Positions 24,809-44,159 of a stretch of 64,000 bases of DNA are shown here, one piece after another (the first letter of the stretch is position 1; each line of letters opens with the position of its first letter). The stretch lies in the IMG/VR virus record IMGVR_UViG_3300021979_000004, positions 32,001-96,000 of that record; one strand, 5' to 3'. Below the pieces are notes generated by a model. That model did not search any database. It was given only the letters and a program-made list of their open reading frames with translations, and was not told where the DNA came from. A program made the position numbers and the translations under genes. This stretch comes from a virus. Taxonomy: Duplodnaviria; Caudoviricetes.

Positions 24809-24886
24809 AAACTTATTCTCCTAATTTATATCTATTATTTATTAGAAAATATTTTTTTAAATATGCTATCTTTTTCACTAAAAGGG

Positions 24887-24915
24887 TTGCACTTTAAAAT
24901 TAGATCATCTATAAT
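24887..24915 (+). promoter_or_regulatory. sigma70-type early promoter
   Basis: TTGCAC-17-TATAAT followed by GGTT. Confidence 0.8.
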
Positions 24916-24972
24916 GGTTACATAAGGTTGAGGAACAGACCTCACCGACTAAGCCAAAAGAGGAATTACATT

Positions 24973-25263
24973 ATGACTAACGCATCTACTACTCAAGCAC
25001 AAACCACTCGTCCTGTAGGTCGTCCGCTGTCCAAGCGCGGTCGTAGCGCAAAACGTGCAGTCGAGAAGTTTCTGGAACAGCACGAAGGTCAGTTCACTGC
25101 CGCTGATGTACGTCGAGTAGCCAAGCAGTCCAAGGTTACTGTACGTAACCGCCTGAACGCTCTGGTTGCCGCTGGTGCCATCAAGCAAGTTGCCAGTGTA
25201 CCGGTTCAGAAGGCAGGTAAAGCTACTCGTGGTCGTCCTCTGGCGGTTTACGAAAAAGCATAA
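24973..25263 (+). CDS. basic winged-helix DNA-binding protein flanked by GRP (AT-hook-like) motifs
   Basis: RPVGRP...FTAADV...SKVTVRNRLNALVAAGAI...RGRP; GAGG RBS; higher GC and biased codon use. Confidence 0.75.
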   Translation: MTNASTTQAQTTRPVGRPLSKRGRSAKRAVEKFLEQHEGQFTAADVRRVAKQSKVTVRNRLNALVAAGAIKQVASVPVQKAGKATRGRPLAVYEKA

Positions 25264-32650: not shown

Positions 32651-33021
32651 ACAATGTGAACAAACTTCTTTAGAAATTGACTTTCATTATCCCTCATGTA
32701 TTCATACTTCGAGGGATTTGTTATTTTAATGCGGTTATTATCGTGAACACTTATCAATAGTTTACAACGTATAACAAACTCTTTATAAACTGTGTCGTCG
32801 GTAGGAATATAACTGGTAACCGTAGTACTATCTTTACTGCTTTCAAAACAATCAACCTGTACTTTGAAGCCACATGGTATTTGCATTACATCCTTAAAGT
32901 ATTCTCGAATGTATTCCTGTATCAAGTGTTTGTAATCAGAAATGTCAGACGAAGCAGATTCATGGATAGAAACAATAACCATACCAAAATTGTAATAGTA
33001 ATGACGAAATTCTTCACTCAC
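32647..33021 (-). CDS. KLK-motif array protein 17
   Basis: NNRIKITNPSKY. Confidence 0.75.
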   Translation of the reverse strand: MSEEFRHYYYNFGMVIVSIHESASSDISDYKHLIQEYIREYFKDVMQIPCGFKVQVDCFESSKDSTTVTSYIPTDDTVYKEFVIRCKLLISVHDNNRIKITNPSKYEYMRDNESQFLKKFVHIV

Positions 33022-33347
33022 AAAAAGTCTTCCTTACATACTAATTGAGGGTGTTCTTTTCTCAAGTTTACATAAAGGTTCATATGTTTTAATTTAAAAT
33101 ATTGTAGAGAACGTTTATTTAAAAACTGTACTCTTATAACATATGCATCATAATGTCTACTGTAAAAAACATTCCCATAACTACTTTTAATTGTTGGATA
33201 GGTTATTTTAGTGAAAGCGTACCCGTAAAGTATTTGGTTGATACTTTTCACTTTCTGATTCATGTCATCTTCAGAAACATGATCAGGCTTCTTTATCTTG
33301 TAGTAATACGTCAGTTCTTTCTTCATTACTCGACAAATACCTTCCAA
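33018..33347 (-). CDS. KLK-motif array protein 16
   Basis: LQYFKLKHMNLY. Confidence 0.75.
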   Translation of the reverse strand: MEGICRVMKKELTYYYKIKKPDHVSEDDMNQKVKSINQILYGYAFTKITYPTIKSSYGNVFYSRHYDAYVIRVQFLNKRSLQYFKLKHMNLYVNLRKEHPQLVCKEDFL

Positions 33348-33822
33348 GATATTTATCGTTTTGAGTAATGATCATCTTGTTGATTCTATTGGAATTGTCA
33401 AAGTTAAGCTCAAACACAACGTAAGATTCTATGGCTAACAAGGTATACCGTTTATGTTCACTATCTGCAATCACACAGTCTATAGACCTTGAGTTATCCA
33501 TATAATGCTGAACCTTAGAATCTGGGTCTGTTTGGCATCTTCGGAAAGATACAAACCCTTCGAAATCAGACATATCTCTTTTTGAAAAATGCTCCCTAAC
33601 TTCTCTGTAAATTTCTTCAGACACATTTTTACGATTAGAGTTATCCGAGACTTCAGGAATAAGTAAAGTAATCATCATAGAAAATAATACTTCAATTGAC
33701 GTGTCGCCTGTACGTATAAAAGAAACTGGCTTAAACTTTATATACTTGTCATGTATAGACATTTCACTGCATAATCCACCAGACCGGAGCAAACATTTAT
33801 GGTATAAGTTAAAATGTTTCAT
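33283..33822 (-). CDS. KLK-motif array protein 15 (weak motif)
   Basis: FELNFDNSNRINKMIITQNDKY. Confidence 0.7.
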   Translation of the reverse strand: MKHFNLYHKCLLRSGGLCSEMSIHDKYIKFKPVSFIRTGDTSIEVLFSMMITLLIPEVSDNSNRKNVSEEIYREVREHFSKRDMSDFEGFVSFRRCQTDPDSKVQHYMDNSRSIDCVIADSEHKRYTLLAIESYVVFELNFDNSNRINKMIITQNDKYLGRYLSSNEERTDVLLQDKEA

Positions 33823-33823
33823 A

Positions 33824-34153
33824 TCAGATAACTCCCAAAAATACTATAATGTAGTCCTGCTCACCGTCGTTTTTTATATCACGTTTGTATAGTTCTAACA
33901 ATTCTATCTTGTTGAGAAGCTTAAGCTTATTGAATATTGAAGATTTCTTGTCATTGAATGTTACGGTAGCTTCCATACTACTAAGAATATCTTTTCGATC
34001 AAACATATCAGTCGCGTCTTCGTTTACTTCAACCGTTTCGACTGAAGAATTGCTAGGTAAAAAAGATGTTATCAAGTAATCTTGTATAAATCCTGCGGTA
34101 GGAGGTGCATCACTCCTAGCCACAAAATACATTTTAAACTTAAGCGTATACAC
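33824..34153 (-). CDS. KLK-motif array protein 14
   Basis: IFNKLKLLN. Confidence 0.75.
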   Translation of the reverse strand: MYTLKFKMYFVARSDAPPTAGFIQDYLITSFLPSNSSVETVEVNEDATDMFDRKDILSSMEATVTFNDKKSSIFNKLKLLNKIELLELYKRDIKNDGEQDYIIVFLGVI

Positions 34154-34545
34154 TAATCGATCACCTTCATTTTTGAAAACATTTGATACTCATCTGGGTT
34201 GGACAATTTAAACTTATTTAACTCTTTCTGTGACTCGAATGCTAACGTGACTACTGCGTCAATCTGCATATAACAGTCAAATGTACTGATGTAGTAATCA
34301 TCAATGTAGTAGTCTTCTATTGACATCATGCGGTATATATCATGTTTAAAATTGTCTGACAAAAATCGATCAATATGACACTCTGCTACTTCGTATATAA
34401 GGTCAACAAAAATTTCTGACCTAGCGAACTCTTCCGTAATAACTTCGTGGAAGGGTTCTGTAGCATCTAACATTATCTTTGCAGAAAGCGTTACCTTTTT
34501 AGATTCGGATGTCATAGCACTTCTTAATCTTATCGGCCAAGTCAT
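34153..34545 (-). CDS. KLK-motif array protein 13
   Basis: LAFESQKELNKFKLSNPDEY. Confidence 0.8.
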   Translation of the reverse strand: MTWPIRLRSAMTSESKKVTLSAKIMLDATEPFHEVITEEFARSEIFVDLIYEVAECHIDRFLSDNFKHDIYRMMSIEDYYIDDYYISTFDCYMQIDAVVTLAFESQKELNKFKLSNPDEYQMFSKMKVID

Positions 34546-34876
34546 AGTTAATGAGTTTAATACGATTCAAATCAGATGCGTTGGAAATTTCGAATCCAAT
34601 CTTAACTTCACACTTACTTATAACGTTTCGCAAAACTTGTGGATAGCGACTAATTACAATTTTATCAAACCGCACTTCCTTACGGATATGATTTTCCAAT
34701 AACTCGTAAGCTTCGTCCATACTTTCCGATGACATTAGGTTGACTAACGACTTCAAGAACGTATGATCTGTGATACTGACAGGTAGGATAGGAGCCTTCA
34801 TCACACTAAACTTCATTCGAATAATATCATCTTTTTCAAGCTTCATAACTATTCCTCTTTTACAACATTGTAACAT
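34499..34876 (-). CDS. KLK-motif array protein 12
   Basis: FEISNASDLNRIKLINY. Confidence 0.75.
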   Translation of the reverse strand: MLQCCKRGIVMKLEKDDIIRMKFSVMKAPILPVSITDHTFLKSLVNLMSSESMDEAYELLENHIRKEVRFDKIVISRYPQVLRNVISKCEVKIGFEISNASDLNRIKLINYDLADKIKKCYDIRI

Positions 34877-34896
34877 ATCGACTTAAGTAATGCACC

Positions 34897-35379
34897 TCAA
34901 TTAGGAAGAACCATATCAATATCTATTGAGTACATAGTGGGTCCAGTTCCTTTTAAAATCTCTTGGTATATTTTTGCGTTTTTTAATTTAGCATAATTAT
35001 GATTAGAAAAGTCAGCGATATTGAATTTCACAGTGCTATATATAATATAATCATCTACCCATTCGTTAGGTCGTACCAGTGTATGTTCCAAAGGCTTACC
35101 TTTAAGACCGTTATCATCGATCCATTTCTGAGACTCTTTAGTAATCTCTTTCATGAAGTTTTTAATAGCAGTATCTTCGTCTACACCTTTCTCGCCTTTG
35201 AGATAATTATGCAATGCAAGACTGATATCAAATAAATCATCCTCACCATTAGAAGGATCAACAGTCTCGTCACCAATGGTGATTTTTTTTATAGAAAAGT
35301 TTAAGGTGATAAGAATACTTTCTTTTTGTTCAACTACATATACAATATTACCATTGTCTAGCTTTACAACTTCAGGCAT
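34897..35379 (-). CDS. KLK-motif array protein 11
   Basis: FNIADFSNHNYAKLKNAKIY. Confidence 0.75.
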   Translation of the reverse strand: MPEVVKLDNGNIVYVVEQKESILITLNFSIKKITIGDETVDPSNGEDDLFDISLALHNYLKGEKGVDEDTAIKNFMKEITKESQKWIDDNGLKGKPLEHTLVRPNEWVDDYIIYSTVKFNIADFSNHNYAKLKNAKIYQEILKGTGPTMYSIDIDMVLPN

Positions 35380-35900
35380 TAGTACTTCCCCATTATATAC
35401 CTTATTATGGATTCATTAGATAAGTCTTCTGATAAAACAGTATGAAGTGTTTTATCTTTTATCTTCATTAGATGTGCTTGCTTTTTAGGAATTTTAATAC
35501 AAATACGGTCGTATATTAGAAAACCAACTTCGTAAGCAAATGTCTGATGTATCTTTACTACACCTTGTCTGACAACATTTGAAAATGACGCAGAATGTTT
35601 CTGTCTGAATACATATGGTGATAGAAAGTCAGACATAGCAGAATACTCTTCATCCATACCCGAAACGACTTTTCTCTTTACTGTCATTTTGTAATCGTAT
35701 CCTTTTAGGAAATCCCTGATCATATTGTTTATCTTTCTATCTCGGTCTAGGTCTTTTACGAAGCTTTCTTTTAAGGTATTAACATATTTTTCAACTTTTT
35801 CTTCATTTTCAAAGTTATGATAATCGACATTTATCATTTCGTGGTCTACCATTTTTAGTAGATACATATAGTAATCTTCATTTTTCGATTTTATAGACAT
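35379..35900 (-). CDS. KLK-motif array protein 10
   Basis: IKIPKKQAHLMKIKDKTL. Confidence 0.75.
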   Translation of the reverse strand: MSIKSKNEDYYMYLLKMVDHEMINVDYHNFENEEKVEKYVNTLKESFVKDLDRDRKINNMIRDFLKGYDYKMTVKRKVVSGMDEEYSAMSDFLSPYVFRQKHSASFSNVVRQGVVKIHQTFAYEVGFLIYDRICIKIPKKQAHLMKIKDKTLHTVLSEDLSNESIIRYIMGKY

Positions 35901-36190
35901 TATGATTTTATTTCCACTATGTTATCTAATTGTGACATGAACTTGATTTTAAACTTATTAACATTATAAGTATCAGGGAATTGTAAAATTACCGTGCATG
36001 ATATTCGATAATCATGGCATTCAGTTGCTGTTTTATCAAAAAGCATTGGGTGGACTGTACACAATCCATCAAATTCATCCCCAACCCTATCTGAAATCAT
36101 TTGACGAATTTTAAAATCACTAAGGTCGTCTGGGTCGGGGATATGGTAAGTTCCTTTATGTTCCATAAGGAACAATCGTTCATCACTCAA
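35900..36190 (-). CDS. KLK-motif array protein 9
   Basis: LQFPDTYNVNKFKIKF. Confidence 0.75.
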   Translation of the reverse strand: MSDERLFLMEHKGTYHIPDPDDLSDFKIRQMISDRVGDEFDGLCTVHPMLFDKTATECHDYRISCTVILQFPDTYNVNKFKIKFMSQLDNIVEIKS

Positions 36191-36482
36191 CTTCTCTCTC
36201 CCTTATTTCATCTTCAAGTAAATTATATAAGTCAGGCTCTTTCATTTTAAGTAAGTTGAGCTTATTCTTTTCGAAATACAAGGTGAACCAAATATCAAAA
36301 ATAGATTGCTTTCTATCTCTCATATCCATATACATTTTCTTTTCTATAATGCAGTATTTTGAGAACTGTTCATTGATGGTATCAGAAGCATTACTCATTT
36401 CTGTACCTAAATCTACCTGCTTTATTTTTGCAATGCGATAATAGTTTATCACTGTTACGCATGTATATTTTGTAATAGTCAT
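36183..36482 (-). CDS. KLK-motif array protein 8
   Basis: LYFEKNKLNLLKMKEPDLY. Confidence 0.8.
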   Translation of the reverse strand: MTITKYTCVTVINYYRIAKIKQVDLGTEMSNASDTINEQFSKYCIIEKKMYMDMRDRKQSIFDIWFTLYFEKNKLNLLKMKEPDLYNLLEDEIREREVE

Positions 36483-36895
36483 AACTTTAACTTGTTTAAT
36501 AAATGTAACCTTTCGGAAAATAATTCATTATATGTTTTGGGGTTTTTCAACTTATATAAGTTCATTTCACGGTCAGATTCAAACGTAAAACGAAACTCTA
36601 TATACATTGCTTTATTAGGGAAAGAATACGCGCTGGTTAATGATTCAAGATATTCACTATTATATCCCATAGAAACAACTTCAAAGCTATCTGTGTCAGT
36701 CAATGACTTAATTAATGACTGACACACCCAATCCATACCTATATCTTCAGGTTTCATATCGTGCACATCGACACCATATAATTCCATGATACGGGCAGCA
36801 ATTACTTTTTCAGGAACTAGTGTGCCAAGTATTTTCGAGTTTATGTTCTCAAACATTTCACTTTCATTCAAGACCGGCTTTTTTACGCAACGCAT
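36479..36895 (-). CDS. KLK-motif array protein 7
   Basis: FTFESDREMNLYKLKNPKTY. Confidence 0.8.
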   Translation of the reverse strand: MRCVKKPVLNESEMFENINSKILGTLVPEKVIAARIMELYGVDVHDMKPEDIGMDWVCQSLIKSLTDTDSFEVVSMGYNSEYLESLTSAYSFPNKAMYIEFRFTFESDREMNLYKLKNPKTYNELFSERLHLLNKLKL

Positions 36896-37460
36896 TTACT
36901 GTTCCTCTGTCGTCAATACTATCTTTTGATTCTTGTATTATAACTTTATTAAACCATTCTTTGATTTTTTCTTCATTCTCATTATATTCGCCATTGAACA
37001 AACCGATATTTGTTAGTTCTGGATGCTTGAGCTTAAATTGGTTTTTATGTTTTCCTTCCTTGAGTCTTAGCTTATACGTATGTACTACCATCACATAGAC
37101 TGTGGTGGACTCTGCATAAAACTCATCGTCGTCATCGTCATCCCACGAATGAGATTCGACTTCACTGTGAACCGCTATGTTACGATCAACATCAATGTAT
37201 GATCCATATCTTTCTTCAATGATATCTGCAACTTTTTTTGAATAGTGGTTTACAAAACCACCATAAGCTTTTTCACAACGTTCACAAAAATCATCAATAA
37301 AGAATGCACGACATTCCTTTGTTCCATAGTGTATACGAAATCGCCTAAAACGCTTCAGTATCAGTTGTTCATTTTCATCATAACCACTTTCTTCGTCACG
37401 TTGATTAAGATACTCTATATACGGCGTTGGAGTTAACAACTCTACATTGATTGAATCCAC
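36864..37460 (-). CDS. KLK-motif array protein 6
   Basis: LRLKEGKHKNQFKLKHPEL. Confidence 0.8.
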   Translation of the reverse strand: MDSINVELLTPTPYIEYLNQRDEESGYDENEQLILKRFRRFRIHYGTKECRAFFIDDFCERCEKAYGGFVNHYSKKVADIIEERYGSYIDVDRNIAVHSEVESHSWDDDDDDEFYAESTTVYVMVVHTYKLRLKEGKHKNQFKLKHPELTNIGLFNGEYNENEEKIKEWFNKVIIQESKDSIDDRGTVNALRKKAGLE

Positions 37461-37930
37461 TCTTTATACTCCCAATAAGCCATTCTTTTATCAATACATT
37501 CTTGGTGAACAAACGCAGTAACAACTTCGAATGATTCGTCATACAAGTCATCACGGTAATGTTTTCCGTGTTTCAATTTTATACGATTGAGGGATTCCTT
37601 GTCAACGGTATTGGCCGTTATGATAGTGTTATAAACATAGGAATCATATATTCTTGTGGCAATCATATGCTCATCACCGTCGTCATCAACCTCTTGTTTT
37701 TTATCAAAATACTCTAAGAAGTCAGGATCATTAAAGAAAAGCTTAGACATAGCATGATTATTAGCTTTCATATAATCAGCAAACTGTCCATAACTAAGAT
37801 TTACCGACGACTTATAATCATCGACGTAATCTATATCAATACGTTTCAATGTGGTTTCAGTATTATCCTCATTAACTTCTTCAATGTAGTAGAGAAAGCA
37901 CATGTAATGCTCGTCGTCTACTTTAATCAT
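37442..37930 (-). CDS. KLK-motif array protein 5
   Basis: DKESLNRIKLKHGKHY. Confidence 0.8.
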   Translation of the reverse strand: MIKVDDEHYMCFLYYIEEVNEDNTETTLKRIDIDYVDDYKSSVNLSYGQFADYMKANNHAMSKLFFNDPDFLEYFDKKQEVDDDGDEHMIATRIYDSYVYNTIITANTVDKESLNRIKLKHGKHYRDDLYDESFEVVTAFVHQECIDKRMAYWEYKEWIQSM

Positions 37931-38268
37931 AAGTATTCTCCTACTAAATCGTGAACCCCGTATCTTTCACTGTTGTACGGAATTTCATATGGTTTTTCAT
38001 TAGGCGCTGATCTAAACTTTTGATATAGGTCAGGATATTTTAATTTGATTTTTCTAAACAATACTTCATTAAAAATTTCAACATCCATACTAACGTAACA
38101 TAGAGGATACGCTTTTGTTCCTCGAACTTCAATATCTGTAATTAAAATAAAAGAACAGTTTAATAGTTCTTCTAAAAACCCATGGTACTCAATCAATAGT
38201 TGTGACTTAAGCCACTCTGGGTTTTTGTAACCCAACAATATAATTCTATGCTTTGTTTCAAATATCAT
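37927..38268 (-). CDS. KLK-motif array protein 4
   Basis: VEIFNEVLFRKIKLKYPDLY. Confidence 0.8.
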   Translation of the reverse strand: MIFETKHRIILLGYKNPEWLKSQLLIEYHGFLEELLNCSFILITDIEVRGTKAYPLCYVSMDVEIFNEVLFRKIKLKYPDLYQKFRSAPNEKPYEIPYNSERYGVHDLVGEYL

Positions 38269-38677
38269 CAGTATCTTCGACTCTATAATCCTTGTAATAA
38301 TTTGGGTCTTTCAGTTTTATCAAGTTAATATTTTTACTACCCTTTGCTACAACCGCTTTTATAAAATATGTTACTGTGATGGTGTTGGGAGAGTCAAGCC
38401 TTCTCATGCCAGTATGACCCCAATTAGCTTCTACGTTTATAAAATCCATTTGTGATTCTCTAGAATACGAAACCGGATCGCAAATAATTTCTATTGGTTT
38501 TAGTTCATATCTAGCCCACAATTCTATAGCAGCTTGCTTTTTAACTTTTTTAATAATAGACTCTGCCATTAGGCATTCTTTTTCACTACTATTAAGCAAC
38601 AGTTCTACATCACTACCAGTGAACATGTCAGGAGTAATGCAAAAAACTATTGTATGTGGTCTGTATAATATTTTCAT
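38258..38677 (-). CDS. KLK-motif array protein 3
   Basis: KGSKNINLIKLKDPNYY. Confidence 0.8.
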   Translation of the reverse strand: MKILYRPHTIVFCITPDMFTGSDVELLLNSSEKECLMAESIIKKVKKQAAIELWARYELKPIEIICDPVSYSRESQMDFINVEANWGHTGMRRLDSPNTITVTYFIKAVVAKGSKNINLIKLKDPNYYKDYRVEDTDDI

Positions 38678-39108
38678 GTTTTATGTGAGCAATCTATCCC
38701 ATAGAAATACGAACCGTCACTGGTTGAAAAGTTTGCATATTTATGATTAATTAGCTTAGTCATAAAGTTATTTTGAATCTTTAATCTGTTAAAAGATTTG
38801 TTAGAAATCCACACTTTATAACACAACGTAAATGTACAGCATATCCCATCTGCTATAAAAAAGTATTCTGATCTAAAGTTTTCGGATAATTCAAAATCAT
38901 CGAAATCATCTACGAGCCAATCAGGTAAGCCACTATTATCAAAAACATAATTACGATTTTTGAATTCCCATTCTCTAATTATCTGGCTCATGTTTTTTAT
39001 AATTGAAACTTTCTTGAATTCCATAGGTATGAGAACATTCATTACTCGGAATTTTAGATACAAAAAGTTTTCATTGCTTGAAACTAAAGAAGGTTTGGTA
39101 GTAGTCAT
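38674..39108 (-). CDS. KLK-motif array protein 2
   Basis: VWISNKSFNRLKIQN. Confidence 0.75.
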   Translation of the reverse strand: MTTTKPSLVSSNENFLYLKFRVMNVLIPMEFKKVSIIKNMSQIIREWEFKNRNYVFDNSGLPDWLVDDFDDFELSENFRSEYFFIADGICCTFTLCYKVWISNKSFNRLKIQNNFMTKLINHKYANFSTSDGSYFYGIDCSHKT

Positions 39109-39475
39109 AATCCTTGATCTTTAACAAACGTAATTCGTTTTCACTTAGAGAAAGCTTGATTATTCCAGTTACATTAAAGTATAGCATAGCCCTTTGATTC
39201 TGTCCGGTGTTTACTTCACTTGACGCTATACTAAAGCTATTTGTCGTCAACGGGCTTACACATTCTAGAATTGCGCCATACTCTATATCATTCTGATATG
39301 CATGACCGTGTTCAATTAAAAACTTTAAATCAACACGATGTTTATATGCTTCCTCATAGTAATGGTTTGGATCGCCACACTTAGCTTTGTAATGTTGTTC
39401 TTGTATCTCATTACGTATAAAATTCGTGCTAGCTTTATACATAAATGTTCGATAAAGATTTATTGTTTTATCCAT
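39071..39475 (-). CDS. KLK-motif array protein 1
   Basis: LSLSENELRLLKIKDYDYY; probable ATG start (MDKTINL), since the track's TTG start is the promoter -35 box. Confidence 0.75.
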   Translation of the reverse strand: MDKTINLYRTFMYKASTNFIRNEIQEQHYKAKCGDPNHYYEEAYKHRVDLKFLIEHGHAYQNDIEYGAILECVSPLTTNSFSIASSEVNTGQNQRAMLYFNVTGIIKLSLSENELRLLKIKDYDYYQTFFSFKQ

Positions 39476-39512
39476 ATTTTTATAATGTGAGTAATGGAAT
39501 TCCCAACCTAAG

Positions 39513-39541
39513 AATATACTCCTAGAGCCTTGTACTGTCAA
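39513..39541 (-). promoter_or_regulatory. sigma70-type early promoter for the 17-gene array
   Basis: Minus strand TTGACA-17-TATATT. Confidence 0.8.
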
Positions 39542-39545
39542 GGTC

Positions 39546-39553
39546 TATAAATA
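39546..39553 (+). promoter_or_regulatory. T4-type late promoter
   Basis: TATAAATA ending 25 nt before the terminase-C ATG; AGGAG RBS at 39569-39573. Confidence 0.75.
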
Positions 39554-39578
39554 ATGTTATAGATTTATAGGAGTGATC

Positions 39579-39908
39579 ATGAAATCTAATGAGAAGTATG
39601 AAATCTTAACGCCCACAGGATGGAAAGATTTTACAGGCGTTGAATATACTGGAATGAAACAAACATTGAAGATTACCTTAGATTCGGGTAAAGATATTGT
39701 ATGCACCCCAGAGCATAAACTGAAAGTTAATGACAAATATCTTACCGCAGAAAAGATTAAAGTTGGAGACACGATATCATCTGTGTCTTCGGATGTCCAT
39801 AAAGTAACTTCAATAACTGAACATGGAACATCTGCCTGCTATGATTTGGTAAATGTAGAAAATGATGATCACTCTTTTGTAATTCAAAATGATTTAATAT
39901 CTAGTAAC
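39579..39908 (+). mobile_element. C-fragment (110 aa) of an atypically split intein
   Basis: Starts at Met without block A; has block B (IVCTPEHKL), block F (CYDLVNV) and block G ..SSN|C. Confidence 0.82.
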
Positions 39909-41663
39909 TGCGATGAGCTTGCATTCGTTAACAAACGTATTGCTCTCGAATTCTGGACCTCTGTATTCCCCACTCTTTCCTGTGTAACTTACGATACTAT
40001 TATCCTGACTAAAGATGGTTTCATGAGAATTGGAGACGTTTTCAAAGATGTTGATTATAAACCGGGAGACTATTTCACCTTAGATAATTTCGAAGTATGG
40101 GGTAAGTATGGATTTGAAAAAGTATCACATGGTTATATCTCACCAAGTTCCGAAACTGTCATTGTTAGTCTGAAGAATGGACAGTCAGTTGAAGTAACAA
40201 AAGACCATCCATTGTTTGCTAACCGTAATGGTGGTGAAATGGTTCGTGCTGAAGATTTAAAAGTTGGTGATAAACTACGCGTAGATAAAGGCATGATGGT
40301 CGATTTCGGTGGGTTTACAGATTTCAAATGTTTAATTGAAACGGCACACGAAAATCCTGAAATAATACTTAATATGAGCTTCGAATGTTTCAAAAACCTT
40401 ATAGATTTCTTAGACTATAAAATTTATTGCGACAATCAACAAATGATGAATTGCTTTACGCAGGTTCTTAATAACTATGGGTATAATTATGAGTGTAAAG
40501 TTACTACGTTACACGTAAAAGAATGTGTTAGACAATATCGAACTGAATGGGTTGATATCGAATATATTTCCCAAGGCTGTACTAAAGTAACTTATGACTT
40601 TACGGTTCCTGCAACAAAAAGCTTTTTACAAAATGGTATTCTGGGTAGTAACACTGGCGGTTCATGTATTATCACTTCCACACCTACGGACGATGAAACT
40701 CTATTCGCTGACATATGGAAGAAAGCCAATGAAACTATGGATGAGTTCGGTAACACCACTGAGGTAGGTAGTAATGGTTTCAAAGCACTAAAAGTAAAGT
40801 GGGATGAACACCCTGATCGCGGTGAAGAATTCAAAGATTTAATGATTAAGCAGTTTGGTGAAGAGAAATTCAGACGTGAACATGAACTTGATTTCGTTGC
40901 AGAAGATGAAACCCTAATATCACCATTGTACTTGAGTGAAATGAAACACCAAGAACCTATAAAGAAAACAGGTCAGGTAAGATGGTATAAAAAGCTTGAT
41001 CGCAATAAAGTTTATTTTATAGGCTATGATCCAAGTCTAGGTACTGGTGGCGATAACTCTGCTATTCAAATATTTGAATTTCCAAGTATGGAACAAGTAG
41101 GTGAGTGGATGCATAATAAATCTGACGTTCCTACACAATTAAAAGTGTTGAAAAATATACTTAAAATGTTCGAGGATGCCGGTTTCGAAGAAGACAATGT
41201 ACGTTGGACTCTCGAAAATAATTCCATTGGTGAAGCACCATTGGTTCTTATTGAAGAATATGGTGAAGACGAATTCTTTGGATACTTCATGAGCGAACCA
41301 TACAATCCACGTCAACCTAGAGCGCGTTCTAGATTCAGAAAAGGGTTCAATACCAGCAACAGTAGTAAGCTTACTGCGTGTACTCGTTTCAAGCGTTGGG
41401 TTGAGAATGATAAGATGTTAATACATAGTAAGCCTATGATTAAAGAACTAAAAGGTTTCGTATCTCGTGGTAGAACATATAAAGCACGTGCTGGTGATAA
41501 CGATGACTTGGTTATGGCTACACTTCTATGTGTGAGGATGGCTATGATTACTATGCAGGAAGAAGATGAGTATATGGATGCGCTTGGTGTAGGCAATGAG
41601 ATAGATGACACTGAAAGTGATGACGATAGTGATTGGGATCAGCCATTGCCGGTTGTATTTTAA
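39579..41663 (+). CDS. terL: terminase large subunit, C-terminal part (Walker B to nuclease domain), with split-intein C-fragment and a cis intein
   Basis: CDELAFV Walker B, IITSTP motif III, IGYDPSLG / LENNSIG / NDDLVMA RNase H-like nuclease motifs; no Walker A in the ORF. Confidence 0.9.
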   Translation: MKSNEKYEILTPTGWKDFTGVEYTGMKQTLKITLDSGKDIVCTPEHKLKVNDKYLTAEKIKVGDTISSVSSDVHKVTSITEHGTSACYDLVNVENDDHSFVIQNDLISSNCDELAFVNKRIALEFWTSVFPTLSCVTYDTIILTKDGFMRIGDVFKDVDYKPGDYFTLDNFEVWGKYGFEKVSHGYISPSSETVIVSLKNGQSVEVTKDHPLFANRNGGEMVRAEDLKVGDKLRVDKGMMVDFGGFTDFKCLIETAHENPEIILNMSFECFKNLIDFLDYKIYCDNQQMMNCFTQVLNNYGYNYECKVTTLHVKECVRQYRTEWVDIEYISQGCTKVTYDFTVPATKSFLQNGILGSNTGGSCIITSTPTDDETLFADIWKKANETMDEFGNTTEVGSNGFKALKVKWDEHPDRGEEFKDLMIKQFGEEKFRREHELDFVAEDETLISPLYLSEMKHQEPIKKTGQVRWYKKLDRNKVYFIGYDPSLGTGGDNSAIQIFEFPSMEQVGEWMHNKSDVPTQLKVLKNILKMFEDAGFEEDNVRWTLENNSIGEAPLVLIEEYGEDEFFGYFMSEPYNPRQPRARSRFRKGFNTSNSSKLTACTRFKRWVENDKMLIHSKPMIKELKGFVSRGRTYKARAGDNDDLVMATLLCVRMAMITMQEEDEYMDALGVGNEIDDTESDDDSDWDQPLPVVF
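39981..40652 (+). mobile_element. cis intein (224 aa) with degenerate endonuclease region
   Basis: CVTYDTIILTKDG block A, VTKDHPLF block B, TYDFTV..NGILGSN|T. Confidence 0.9.
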
Positions 41664-42849: not shown

Positions 42850-43482
42850 TTATAGTTTTTGTTCCTTTACTTTCTTATATTTATCATCCTCAAAACTTCC
42901 TTCATATGTTAATTTAATGGGCTTGCGGTAGTAGTAATAGTTTGGATGTTTCAACTTATGCAGTCGTTCTAATCTATCTGCTTCTACTTCCATTGAAATA
43001 AAATGTGCGTCAACTGCACTATTCAAGAAATCAAAATCATCTATGAAAATCTTAACATCAAATGCATAGTTCATTGCCAAATAAAGTTCGCCATCTTTCA
43101 TATATTTTACAGAGCTTCCACCACCCGAGCCAAGATTCACACCAGCAACTGAGTGTGCGCCTCGGTTTCCAAACATACCACTACATGACGATATACGATG
43201 GTTATTGATAATAGTGAACTCTATTCTTCCCTGAAGACCCTTGTAATATAATGGCTTTGAATTATCTCTCATGAAGTTCTCAACACCATCGATAGGGCAG
43301 GAATGGGAGTTGCTAACTTCTTTCTTATATTCGACACTGTACTGTAAGCTGATAATATCTGCGTCAAAGTTTTCTTTTATAGCCTCTGGGAGATACTTGA
43401 AAATATCACCCACTTCTTTTGCATCCTCACACAACTTTATTAGAACAAACCTATCAGGCTTCTTACTTACTTTTGGAAACAT
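42850..43482 (-). CDS. hypothetical protein (RLHKLKHPNYY motif variant)
   Basis: ATG 43482 with AGGAGG RBS. Confidence 0.8.
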   Translation of the reverse strand: MFPKVSKKPDRFVLIKLCEDAKEVGDIFKYLPEAIKENFDADIISLQYSVEYKKEVSNSHSCPIDGVENFMRDNSKPLYYKGLQGRIEFTIINNHRISSCSGMFGNRGAHSVAGVNLGSGGGSSVKYMKDGELYLAMNYAFDVKIFIDDFDFLNSAVDAHFISMEVEADRLERLHKLKHPNYYYYRKPIKLTYEGSFEDDKYKKVKEQKL

Positions 43483-43565
43483 GAAATACCTCCTGAAATA
43501 AGAAAGTATAACATCGGCGTTGGTACGAATCAATAAATACTGTAAACAATAATGGAGTTGAAAGT

Positions 43566-44159
43566 ATGAGTTTAAAAAAATATGTAGAACTTTTAGAATC
43601 TGCATCCCAAAGTGGTAAAAATCAGGAAGACACGATACAGGAAGAATTGTTTCTGGTTTTTCAACAAGAAGTTAAAAAACACTTTGGTGATAAAATAGAA
43701 TCATCTGGTTATGAATTTACGTATAATGGCACTGATAAGAATGGTGGTCTTGTTGATGTTTATTATCTTAATGACGAAAAGAATGATAAAATTTCTATTA
43801 GTTTGAATACCGAAGTTTTATCTATTGAAGATAAAGACTACGATGATGAAGAAGCAACTAACATGGAGAAGAAGAGTAATGTTGTTATTAGTCTTCGATT
43901 TGAAGGAACTCTATCTGTATTCTTTGAAACTGAAGTGGGCGATGTAGAAATAACATCTGTACCGGTCAACGAAGAATATGGATTGGTAGTCAAGAAATAC
44001 AATGATCATCTTGGAGCGTATTGGGATAGTCTACTGGATACAAAGAGTGAACAGGACATTGTAGACGATATGAACGCCTACCATGTTGCCTTAGACACCT
44101 TCTTTAAAGAAGCACAGTATGACATACCAAATTATATAAAGATGTACTACGGCTCTTAA
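43566..44159 (+). CDS. acidic late protein with MSLKKYVELLE N-terminus
   Basis: TAAATA upstream; GGAG RBS. Confidence 0.8.
   Translation: MSLKKYVELLESASQSGKNQEDTIQEELFLVFQQEVKKHFGDKIESSGYEFTYNGTDKNGGLVDVYYLNDEKNDKISISLNTEVLSIEDKDYDDEEATNMEKKSNVVISLRFEGTLSVFFETEVGDVEITSVPVNEEYGLVVKKYNDHLGAYWDSLLDTKSEQDIVDDMNAYHVALDTFFKEAQYDIPNYIKMYYGS

Follow-up and report, generated by a model that had tools for sequence, protein, structure and literature searches.

A jumbo-phage terminase large subunit gene that starts with an atypically split intein C-fragment, and its proposed place in a TerL encoded in at least three pieces

Organization of the terminase locus

The window analyzed here is a stretch of 64,000 nucleotides (nt) corresponding to positions 32001-96000 of the linear IMG/VR virus record IMGVR_UViG_3300021979_000004 (Caudoviricetes; 217,982 bp, 35.5% G+C). 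It carries a gene, termed the C piece, which codes for the carboxyl-terminal part of the terminase large subunit (TerL) and starts with the C-terminal fragment of an atypically split intein (IntC2). IntC2 is followed by a short extein stub, by a complete cis intein and by the rest of TerL. The features are collected in Table 1; in the text an arrow marks the junction between extein and intein or the insertion point of an intein.

Table 1. Features of the TerL C piece and of its 5' region. Positions are those of the window; lengths are in nucleotides (nt) or amino acids (aa).
Feature	Position	Strand	Description
TATAAATA, T4-type late-promoter-like motif	39546..39553	+	25 nt ahead of the start codon; conserved with the ribosome-binding site in two other assemblies
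AGGAG ribosome-binding site	39569..39573	+	5 nt ahead of the ATG
TerL C piece, 694 aa + stop	39579..41663	+	IntC2, 24-aa extein, cis intein, remaining ATPase and nuclease domain; 19 homologues with the same architecture
IntC2, aa 1-110, atypically split intein C-fragment	39579..39908	+	Blocks B (TPEH), F (YD) and G (SSN); +1 residue Cys111
Extein stub CDELAFV...FPTLS, 24 aa	39909..39980	+	Walker B Asp-Glu and the next strand; colinear with the TerLs of G001 and PA5oct
cis intein, aa 135-358, 224 aa	39981..40652	+	Cys1, block B TKDH, end GSN, +1 Thr
C-extein, aa 359-694	40653..41660	+	Last part of the TerL ATPase domain, followed by the RNase H-like nuclease domain

Residues 1-110 open with MKSNEKYEILTPTGW and pass from SSN directly into CDELAFV, which holds the Walker B Asp-Glu. 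They cover positions 47-104 of the Pfam Intein_splicing profile and lack block A. The 19 clusters of homologous C pieces found in metagenomes (IntC2 identity 36-90%) keep the residues expected of a class 1 intein: block B (residues 43-46) has an invariant H46 and a T43 shared by at least 90% of them, D89 of block F is invariant, the terminal residue is Asn or Gln, and the +1 residue is always Cys. These positions are kept even across homologues that are just 36-57% identical in their inteins. The penultimate His of block G is replaced by Ser in IntC2 and is found in only two of the 19 homologues; this His is common among inteins, not universal. The top match of residues 1-125 in a sequence search of the PDB is CatC (6DSL_B, E 1e-7), the C-fragment of the consensus atypical TerL intein, which bears out the resemblance to the AceL-TerL and GOS-TerL inteins suspected from the sequence alone.

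The cis intein starts 24 residues past the first junction, at FPTLS↓C. It scores 40.6 bits against Intein_splicing, above the cut-off, and its AlphaFold2 (AF2) model (predicted local distance difference test score, pLDDT, 94; predicted template modelling score, pTM, 0.90) finds the Mxe GyrA, PhoVMA and CDC21 inteins in Foldseek (E ~1e-8). A helical insert of ~70 aa occupies the usual position of the homing endonuclease. Among relatives its length ranges over 224-427 aa, and Pfam recognizes a LAGLIDADG domain in one version. The Pfam families detected on the C piece are Intein_splicing, PT-HINT and Terminase_6C. Its Pfam and PHROG TerL signal is confined to about residue 359 onward, with phrog_36964 (terminase large subunit) matching residues 359-679 (E 1e-67) and Terminase_6C (PF17289) scoring 25.2 bits for a cut-off of 22.6. 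The C-extein is 65.8% identical to gene 224 of Salicola phage SCTP-2, in which the 24-aa stub is matched separately, and identity of the exteins to intact TerLs is 46-51%.

The initial annotation, made from the sequence alone, had described a promoter and an AGGAG ribosome-binding site ahead of the gene, an unrelated divergent operon upstream, and a 110-aa IntC with blocks B, F and G, lacking block A, that leads to SSN↓CDELAFV. All of these are present, the upstream DNA being a divergent array of small open reading frames (ORFs) on the minus strand. The description of the gene as an IntC followed by the remainder of TerL was incomplete for it missed the cis intein. The TATAAATA motif occurs 10 times over the whole window against 11.7 copies expected and is not significantly enriched; six of the 10 copies lie 15-90 nt 5' of an ORF start on the correct strand, a placement that is suggestive.

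The abrupt start of the gene could be explained by an assembly chimera with a join at about position 39545, a reading for which nothing speaks beyond the unusual anatomy. Over the last 50 nt ahead of the ATG, which include motif and ribosome-binding site, two other assemblies differ by a single mismatch: a 458-kb ENA scaffold, that of an 87% relative, and a separate 3-kb contig. Both match in promoter, ribosome-binding site and start and diverge from the window farther upstream. The same N-terminal IntC is also present in the isolate genome of SCTP-2 and in 18 other protein clusters. A chimeric join is excluded by this recurrence of the gene start in independent assemblies, and its probability is put at next to nothing.

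The middle piece

When the whole record is searched with a TerL profile, one place besides the C piece is hit, at 138.9 kb. The gene found there, termed the middle piece, is located outside the window on the plus strand (own genome 138653-139546; 297 aa), at a distance of ~65 kb downstream from the C piece. Its ATG is likewise preceded by TATAAATA, 24 nt ahead. Its product consists of an IntC1 (115 aa, ending SHN↓T), an 87-aa TerL extein and a 95-aa N-terminal intein fragment (IntN2). IntC1 is nearest, by sequence and by fold, to the VidaL and Cat atypically split inteins. The extein begins with the P-loop Thr, ends in the Walker B strand (..SISLLY) and matches residues 142-283 of T4 gp17 in fold comparison (Z 7.6, 31% identity). 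IntN2 starts with CLDAGT and carries the block A nucleophile Cys1 that IntC2 lacks (..SISLLY↓CLDAGT); C1, L2 and D3 are invariant in 40 homologues.

The TerL of this phage is interrupted at three sites: site a in the P-loop (RQxGK↓T), site b in the Walker B strand (SLLY↓CDE) and site c (PTLS↓TGG), where the cis intein resides. The extein end ..SISLLY of the middle piece, when joined to CDELAFV of the C piece, gives a normal Walker B motif. The middle extein and the two exteins of the C piece, joined in silico, align without gaps at any junction to the intein-free TerLs of phage PA5oct and of the IMG/VR genome G001. Walker A and Walker B do not stand on one polypeptide: Walker B is divided between the middle and C pieces, and the Walker A lysine belongs to a piece absent from the record. 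Both motifs would be restored only through splicing.

IntN2 has a long and a short form among the about 100 clusters of middle pieces: about 40 have, like the present one, the long form of 95 aa, and more than 60 a short form of 30-45 aa. The last ~55 residues of the long form align to IntC2 residues 25-79, from block B to N4 (hhalign probability 92%, E 6e-7). AF2 models this tail with pLDDT 80-89, in a fold similar to a portion of a HINT domain (5BKH, Z 8.8, root-mean-square deviation 1.4 Å over 54 residues). Where TxxH would stand it has a decayed VPES, a motif that varies among relatives; its pN/pS (ratio of the proportions of non-synonymous, pN, and synonymous, pS, differences) of 0.053 reveals a constraint equal to that on the extein. 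IntC2 measures 107-116 aa whether its cognate IntN2 is short or long, and the ~55 extra residues are therefore redundant. Judged from these comparisons, the tail duplicates the block-B region supplied by IntC2 and has been retained in a non-catalytic state. The functional IntN2 would correspond to the first ~35 aa, containing block A.

The initial annotation had proposed a TerL made by trans-splicing from two halves encoded by non-adjacent genes, the missing one being a TerL N-half with the Walker A motif and a short IntN of 15-40 aa. The prediction of a distant, IntN-bearing TerL gene has held, and the extein ends of the two pieces fit, which supports assembly by trans-splicing. The partner found in the record is however not an N-half: it starts past the Walker A lysine, its IntN2 has 95 aa, and TerL is divided into at least three pieces.

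The N piece and the three-piece TerL of SCTP-2

The nearest isolate, Salicola phage SCTP-2 (MF360958), has a complete genome of 440 kb and exteins 66-69% identical to those described here. Its C piece (gene 224, 694 aa) carries the same two inteins, with an IntC2 that ends in Gln and not in Asn, and its middle piece (gene 267, 297 aa) has the same long IntN2. In addition it encodes an N piece of 130 aa that ends ARQLGK↓C plus a 43-aa IntN1. The three pieces map at ~216, 256 and 429 kb, on different strands, and match TerL residues 5-82, 53-171 and 170-518. There is no further TerL in the complete SCTP-2 genome, where an uninterrupted TerL query matches only these three pieces. This phage was isolated and propagated, and must consequently depend on the three-piece arrangement. 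Note that the GenBank label of all three ORFs is merely "terminase large subunit".

An N piece was not found in the 218-kb record, and hence not in the window as previously noted, by regular expressions for Walker A and GK↓C or by tblastn with the N-termini of SCTP-2 and PA5oct, nor did profile searches (a 5-sequence profile, PF03237, phrog_36964 and phrog_2) detect anything there beyond the middle and C pieces. The search of the record for a partner of the C piece has thus yielded the IntN-bearing TerL piece and no Walker A piece. A word-based scan of IMG/VR gave no close relative of the SCTP-2 N piece. The best proxy, which ends RQMGK↓C plus 47 aa, is located on a 64-kb contig of a metagenome that also yielded a middle piece 87% identical to the one described here; the two contigs are only possibly linked. 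CheckV estimates the record to be 73% complete. It is probably about half a genome, perhaps less, since close relatives of the C piece are found on contigs of 458-462 kb. Pieces ending RQxGK↓C followed by 31-73 aa are frequent among relatives: they were found in 82 of the best 148 representative clusters, hence in at least 82.

The genomic arrangement of the pieces varies, which speaks for separate genes. In the IMG/VR genome G003 the N, middle and C pieces are adjacent, IntN2 has 38 aa, and a free-standing 429-aa ORF separates the middle from the C piece, while in another relative contig the N and middle pieces are convergent on opposite strands. A group of relatives (L104:5001-8128, P0112, P0120, P0136 and similar) has a three-piece TerL cut at the P-loop and at a further site, REHx↓C(E/Q)FL; the layout is an IntN of 28-40 aa, a DUF7487 gene in between, and an IntC of ~115 aa. 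The further site is probably that of AceL-TerL and GOS-TerL.

Additional particularities were observed among relatives. The N pieces P0148, P0149, P0151, P0152 and P0166 (L105:10897-11946) carry a complete intein that starts with Ala1 and is class-3-like in its block B Trp, its block F Cys and its THN end. Inserted after the Walker A Lys and ahead of the Cys1 of IntN1, it gives two tandem inteins at one site and would have to use Cys1 of IntN1 as its +1 nucleophile. Three N-terminal TerL ORFs of 82 aa each (P0026, P0027 and P0189) end just ahead of Walker A without an intein motif (..SISMCGR in P0026 and P0027, ..NINMMPR in P0189), and may reflect another interruption, e.g., an intron, at the same hot spot. 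In a related contig, the N piece overlaps at its end with a 436-aa ORF that has a T5orf172 domain (L011:2862-4172; domain E 1e-4), a candidate free-standing endonuclease beside the split site. In G003, directly 5' of the true middle piece, lies a near-duplicate ORF (L096:1305-2207) in which IntC1 continues with TerL sequence that is diverged and uninterrupted (..SLVYFDELALV..) and stops early. This ORF resembles a relic of the gene-fracturing rearrangement.

Conservation and selection

Selection was assessed against relatives with 87% identity in IntC2 (C piece) or over the whole middle piece. For IntC2, pN is 0.097 and pS 0.778 (pN/pS 0.12). Among the other intein parts the ratio amounts to 0.09 (cis intein), 0.16 (IntC1) and 0.05 (each part of IntN2), and in the exteins to 0.02-0.05, all with saturation of synonymous sites (pS 0.64-0.88). 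The ratio of non-synonymous to synonymous substitution rates (dN/dS) is 0.008 for the C-extein and 0.008-0.05 for the exteins overall, with saturated dS. The intein residues are conserved and under purifying selection.

These data bear on whether the pieces are decaying remnants, with an intact TerL encoded in the unsequenced part of the genome. The incompleteness of the record and the lack of an N piece in it would agree with such decay. Against it stand the low dN/dS of the exteins, coding frames without stops or frameshifts, the complete genome of SCTP-2 that has just the three pieces, and the same architecture in dozens of diverged lineages. Decay is accordingly judged very improbable.

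Proposed assembly of TerL

The anatomy of the gene, its partner piece, the colinearity of the exteins, sequence conservation and purifying selection are the observations from which we infer that the fragments associate and splice. The C piece would be the C-terminal one of at least three separately transcribed genes that jointly encode a jumbo-phage TerL, their products being joined by protein trans-splicing; the probability of this interpretation, drawn from sequence, is estimated at roughly 85%. The N piece would encode TerL up to the Walker A lysine (RQxGK) followed by a short IntN1. All pieces would be made late in infection from TATAAATA-type promoters. IntN1 would pair with IntC1, and IntN2 with IntC2, to complete two HINT folds. 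A canonical TerL of ~535 aa, of which 336 aa come from the C-extein, would then result from three splicing reactions: two in trans, with Cys1 acting alongside +1 Thr in one and +1 Cys in the other, and a third in cis, between Cys1 and +1 Thr.

Three points weigh against this interpretation. The first is that the N piece is not in the record, which is 73% complete by CheckV and possibly less than half of a genome of the size found in relatives (~460 kb). The second is that IntC2 and the cis intein end in Ser-Asn where His-Asn is usual, and that some homologues end in Gln, which could slow or alter the last splicing step; Ser-Asn and Gln ends do occur among active inteins. The third is that IntN1 and IntN2 are alike in pattern, so that mis-pairing or cyclization of the middle piece is conceivable.

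The atypical ends also fit a different model, in which the fragments are held together through their intein halves and never ligated. The HINT halves would then serve as dimerization modules of a non-covalent, three-chain terminase. The absence of the penultimate His in IntC2 (SSN) and in the cis intein (GSN), the Gln ends of some homologues, and the conservation of a non-catalytic extra half-HINT on IntN2 are compatible with it. However, homologues at 36-90% identity keep the full set of catalytic residues (Cys1, Thr and His of block B, Asp of block F, a terminal Asn or Gln, +1 Cys or Thr), which is expected only if the splicing chemistry is used. The insertions moreover lie inside the P-loop and the Walker B strand, where a retained domain of ~145 aa would disrupt the ATPase core. 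The non-ligated model is therefore regarded as improbable, if less so than decay. Conservation, selection, the inventory of SCTP-2 and the independent assemblies together disfavor the three alternatives (no ligation, decay, misassembly), which remain unlikely even when summed.

Assembly by splicing, as preferred here, would be a natural case of one enzyme put together from the products of three genes through a cis intein and two atypically split inteins that are paralogous, a case undescribed in the literature searched. Such assembly would imply built-in orthogonality of the two split inteins. It would place three post-translational steps before the packaging ATPase-nuclease becomes active, possibly as a timing or safety device.

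Relation to known split inteins

Naturally split TerL inteins of the atypical type are represented by AceL-TerL, GOS-TerL and Cat (PMC11766414). The GOS TerL split intein has a 122-aa IntC from which no motif but N1 is missing (Dassa 2009, PMC2677866). The IntN2-IntC2 intein shares with AceL-TerL, GOS-TerL and Cat (PDB 6DSL) its occurrence in a T4-type TerL, the residues Cys1 and Cys+1, the split between blocks A and B, an IntC of more than 100 aa with blocks B, F and G, and a functional IntN that is essentially block A. It differs from them in sequence (only ~25% identity), in the 95-aa IntN2 with its redundant half-HINT, in the second cut in the host gene and in the dispersal of the pieces.

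The insertion site LLY↓CDE likely differs from that of AceL-TerL, a difference already suspected from the junction; the known inteins are probably inserted at REHx↓C(E/Q)FL. The C-extein of Cat starts with CE, which this further site (site d) of the relatives fits, and ours starts with CDE. An IntN from site d gave no Cat match in a PDB search, and an IntC from there is no nearer to CatC than IntC2 is; similarity can therefore not assign the AceL/GOS insertion site.

The breakage of a phage enzyme gene by a split intein follows the pattern of fractured genes defined by Dassa et al. 2009 (PMC2677866). Their layout, in which an N part plus IntN, a free-standing endonuclease gene and an IntC plus C part are neighbors on one strand, is found in the relatives L104 and G003, in the latter with the free-standing ORF between the halves. 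The present case differs in that the pieces are three instead of two and ~65 kb apart (38 and 172 kb in SCTP-2), and no endonuclease-like neighbor was seen beside the TerL pieces of this genome. A further similarity is that the clamp-loader gene of the same genome is also broken by a split intein. This RFC/gp44-like gene is fractured outside the window (own genome 209975-211153 and 212694-212978, minus strand). Its N part ends GPPGTGK↓CLDGSEY.. (31-aa IntN) and its C part has an IntC of ~130 aa ending HHN↓TT, with a gap of ~1.5 kb between them.

SCTP-2 shares with the present phage the three-piece architecture, the three insertion sites, the long IntN2 and the cis intein. No paper on a three-piece TerL or on the SCTP-2 arrangement was found in the literature searched. 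In cyanobacterial DnaE the two halves of the enzyme are encoded far apart and joined by trans-splicing. It resembles the TerL system as an essential enzyme with distant halves, and differs by its canonical split site (IntN of ~100-120 aa, IntC of ~36 aa), its two pieces and its cellular, not viral, origin.

Engineered systems offer two further parallels. Tandem trans-splicing for the assembly of three segments needs two orthogonal split inteins (Shi & Muir 2005, as cited in PMC11766414). Caged split inteins, as PMC11766414 cites them from Gramespacher et al. 2019, carry a copy of part of the partner fragment, and IntN2 likewise carries a partner-fragment copy. Both are laboratory designs, while the TerL arrangement is natural and known here from its sequence. 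A tentative and rather doubtful idea is that the catalytically dead half-HINT of IntN2 acts as a natural cage or specificity module that covers the block-A strands until the cognate IntC2 takes its place. Fold searches with an AF2 model of the whole middle piece show, in their aligned ranges, no sign of IntN2 block-A strands docked on IntC1 or on the extension, in a model that is weak (pTM 0.37). If the cage exists, it would keep the middle piece, whose IntC1-extein-IntN2 order is a cyclization topology, from cyclizing, and would avoid mis-pairing of IntN2 with the paralogous IntC1, leading to an ordered and orthogonal three-piece assembly. It would then give engineered caged split inteins their first natural counterpart, and be a snapshot of a split site moving between canonical and atypical positions. 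The overlapping halves of IntN2 and IntC2 are in any case a concrete intermediate for the movement of split sites.

Atypically split inteins are valued for three-segment ligation and semisynthesis, and they are scarce. Large and diverse natural families of them, including matched pairs from single genomes, reside at the P-loop and Walker B sites of TerL. Note also that fractured TerL genes can mislead marker-gene phylogenies and estimates of jumbo-phage completeness.

Neighboring and repeated genes

About 10 small paralogous ORFs of 100-250 aa form a tandem array (window 33018-39541, upstream of the terminase C piece, and 42850-43605; both minus strand). Common to them is a C-terminal motif of the form (F/L)K(L/I)K(H/N/D/Y)P..Y. 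A gene of ~92 aa (..GRPLSKRGRSAKRAVEKFLEQH..) occurs at least twice in the record, at window positions 24867-25263 (own genome 56867-57263) and at 217356-217641 of the own genome. It is also found ~850 nt ahead of the TerL N piece in the related contig L011, with 83% DNA identity.

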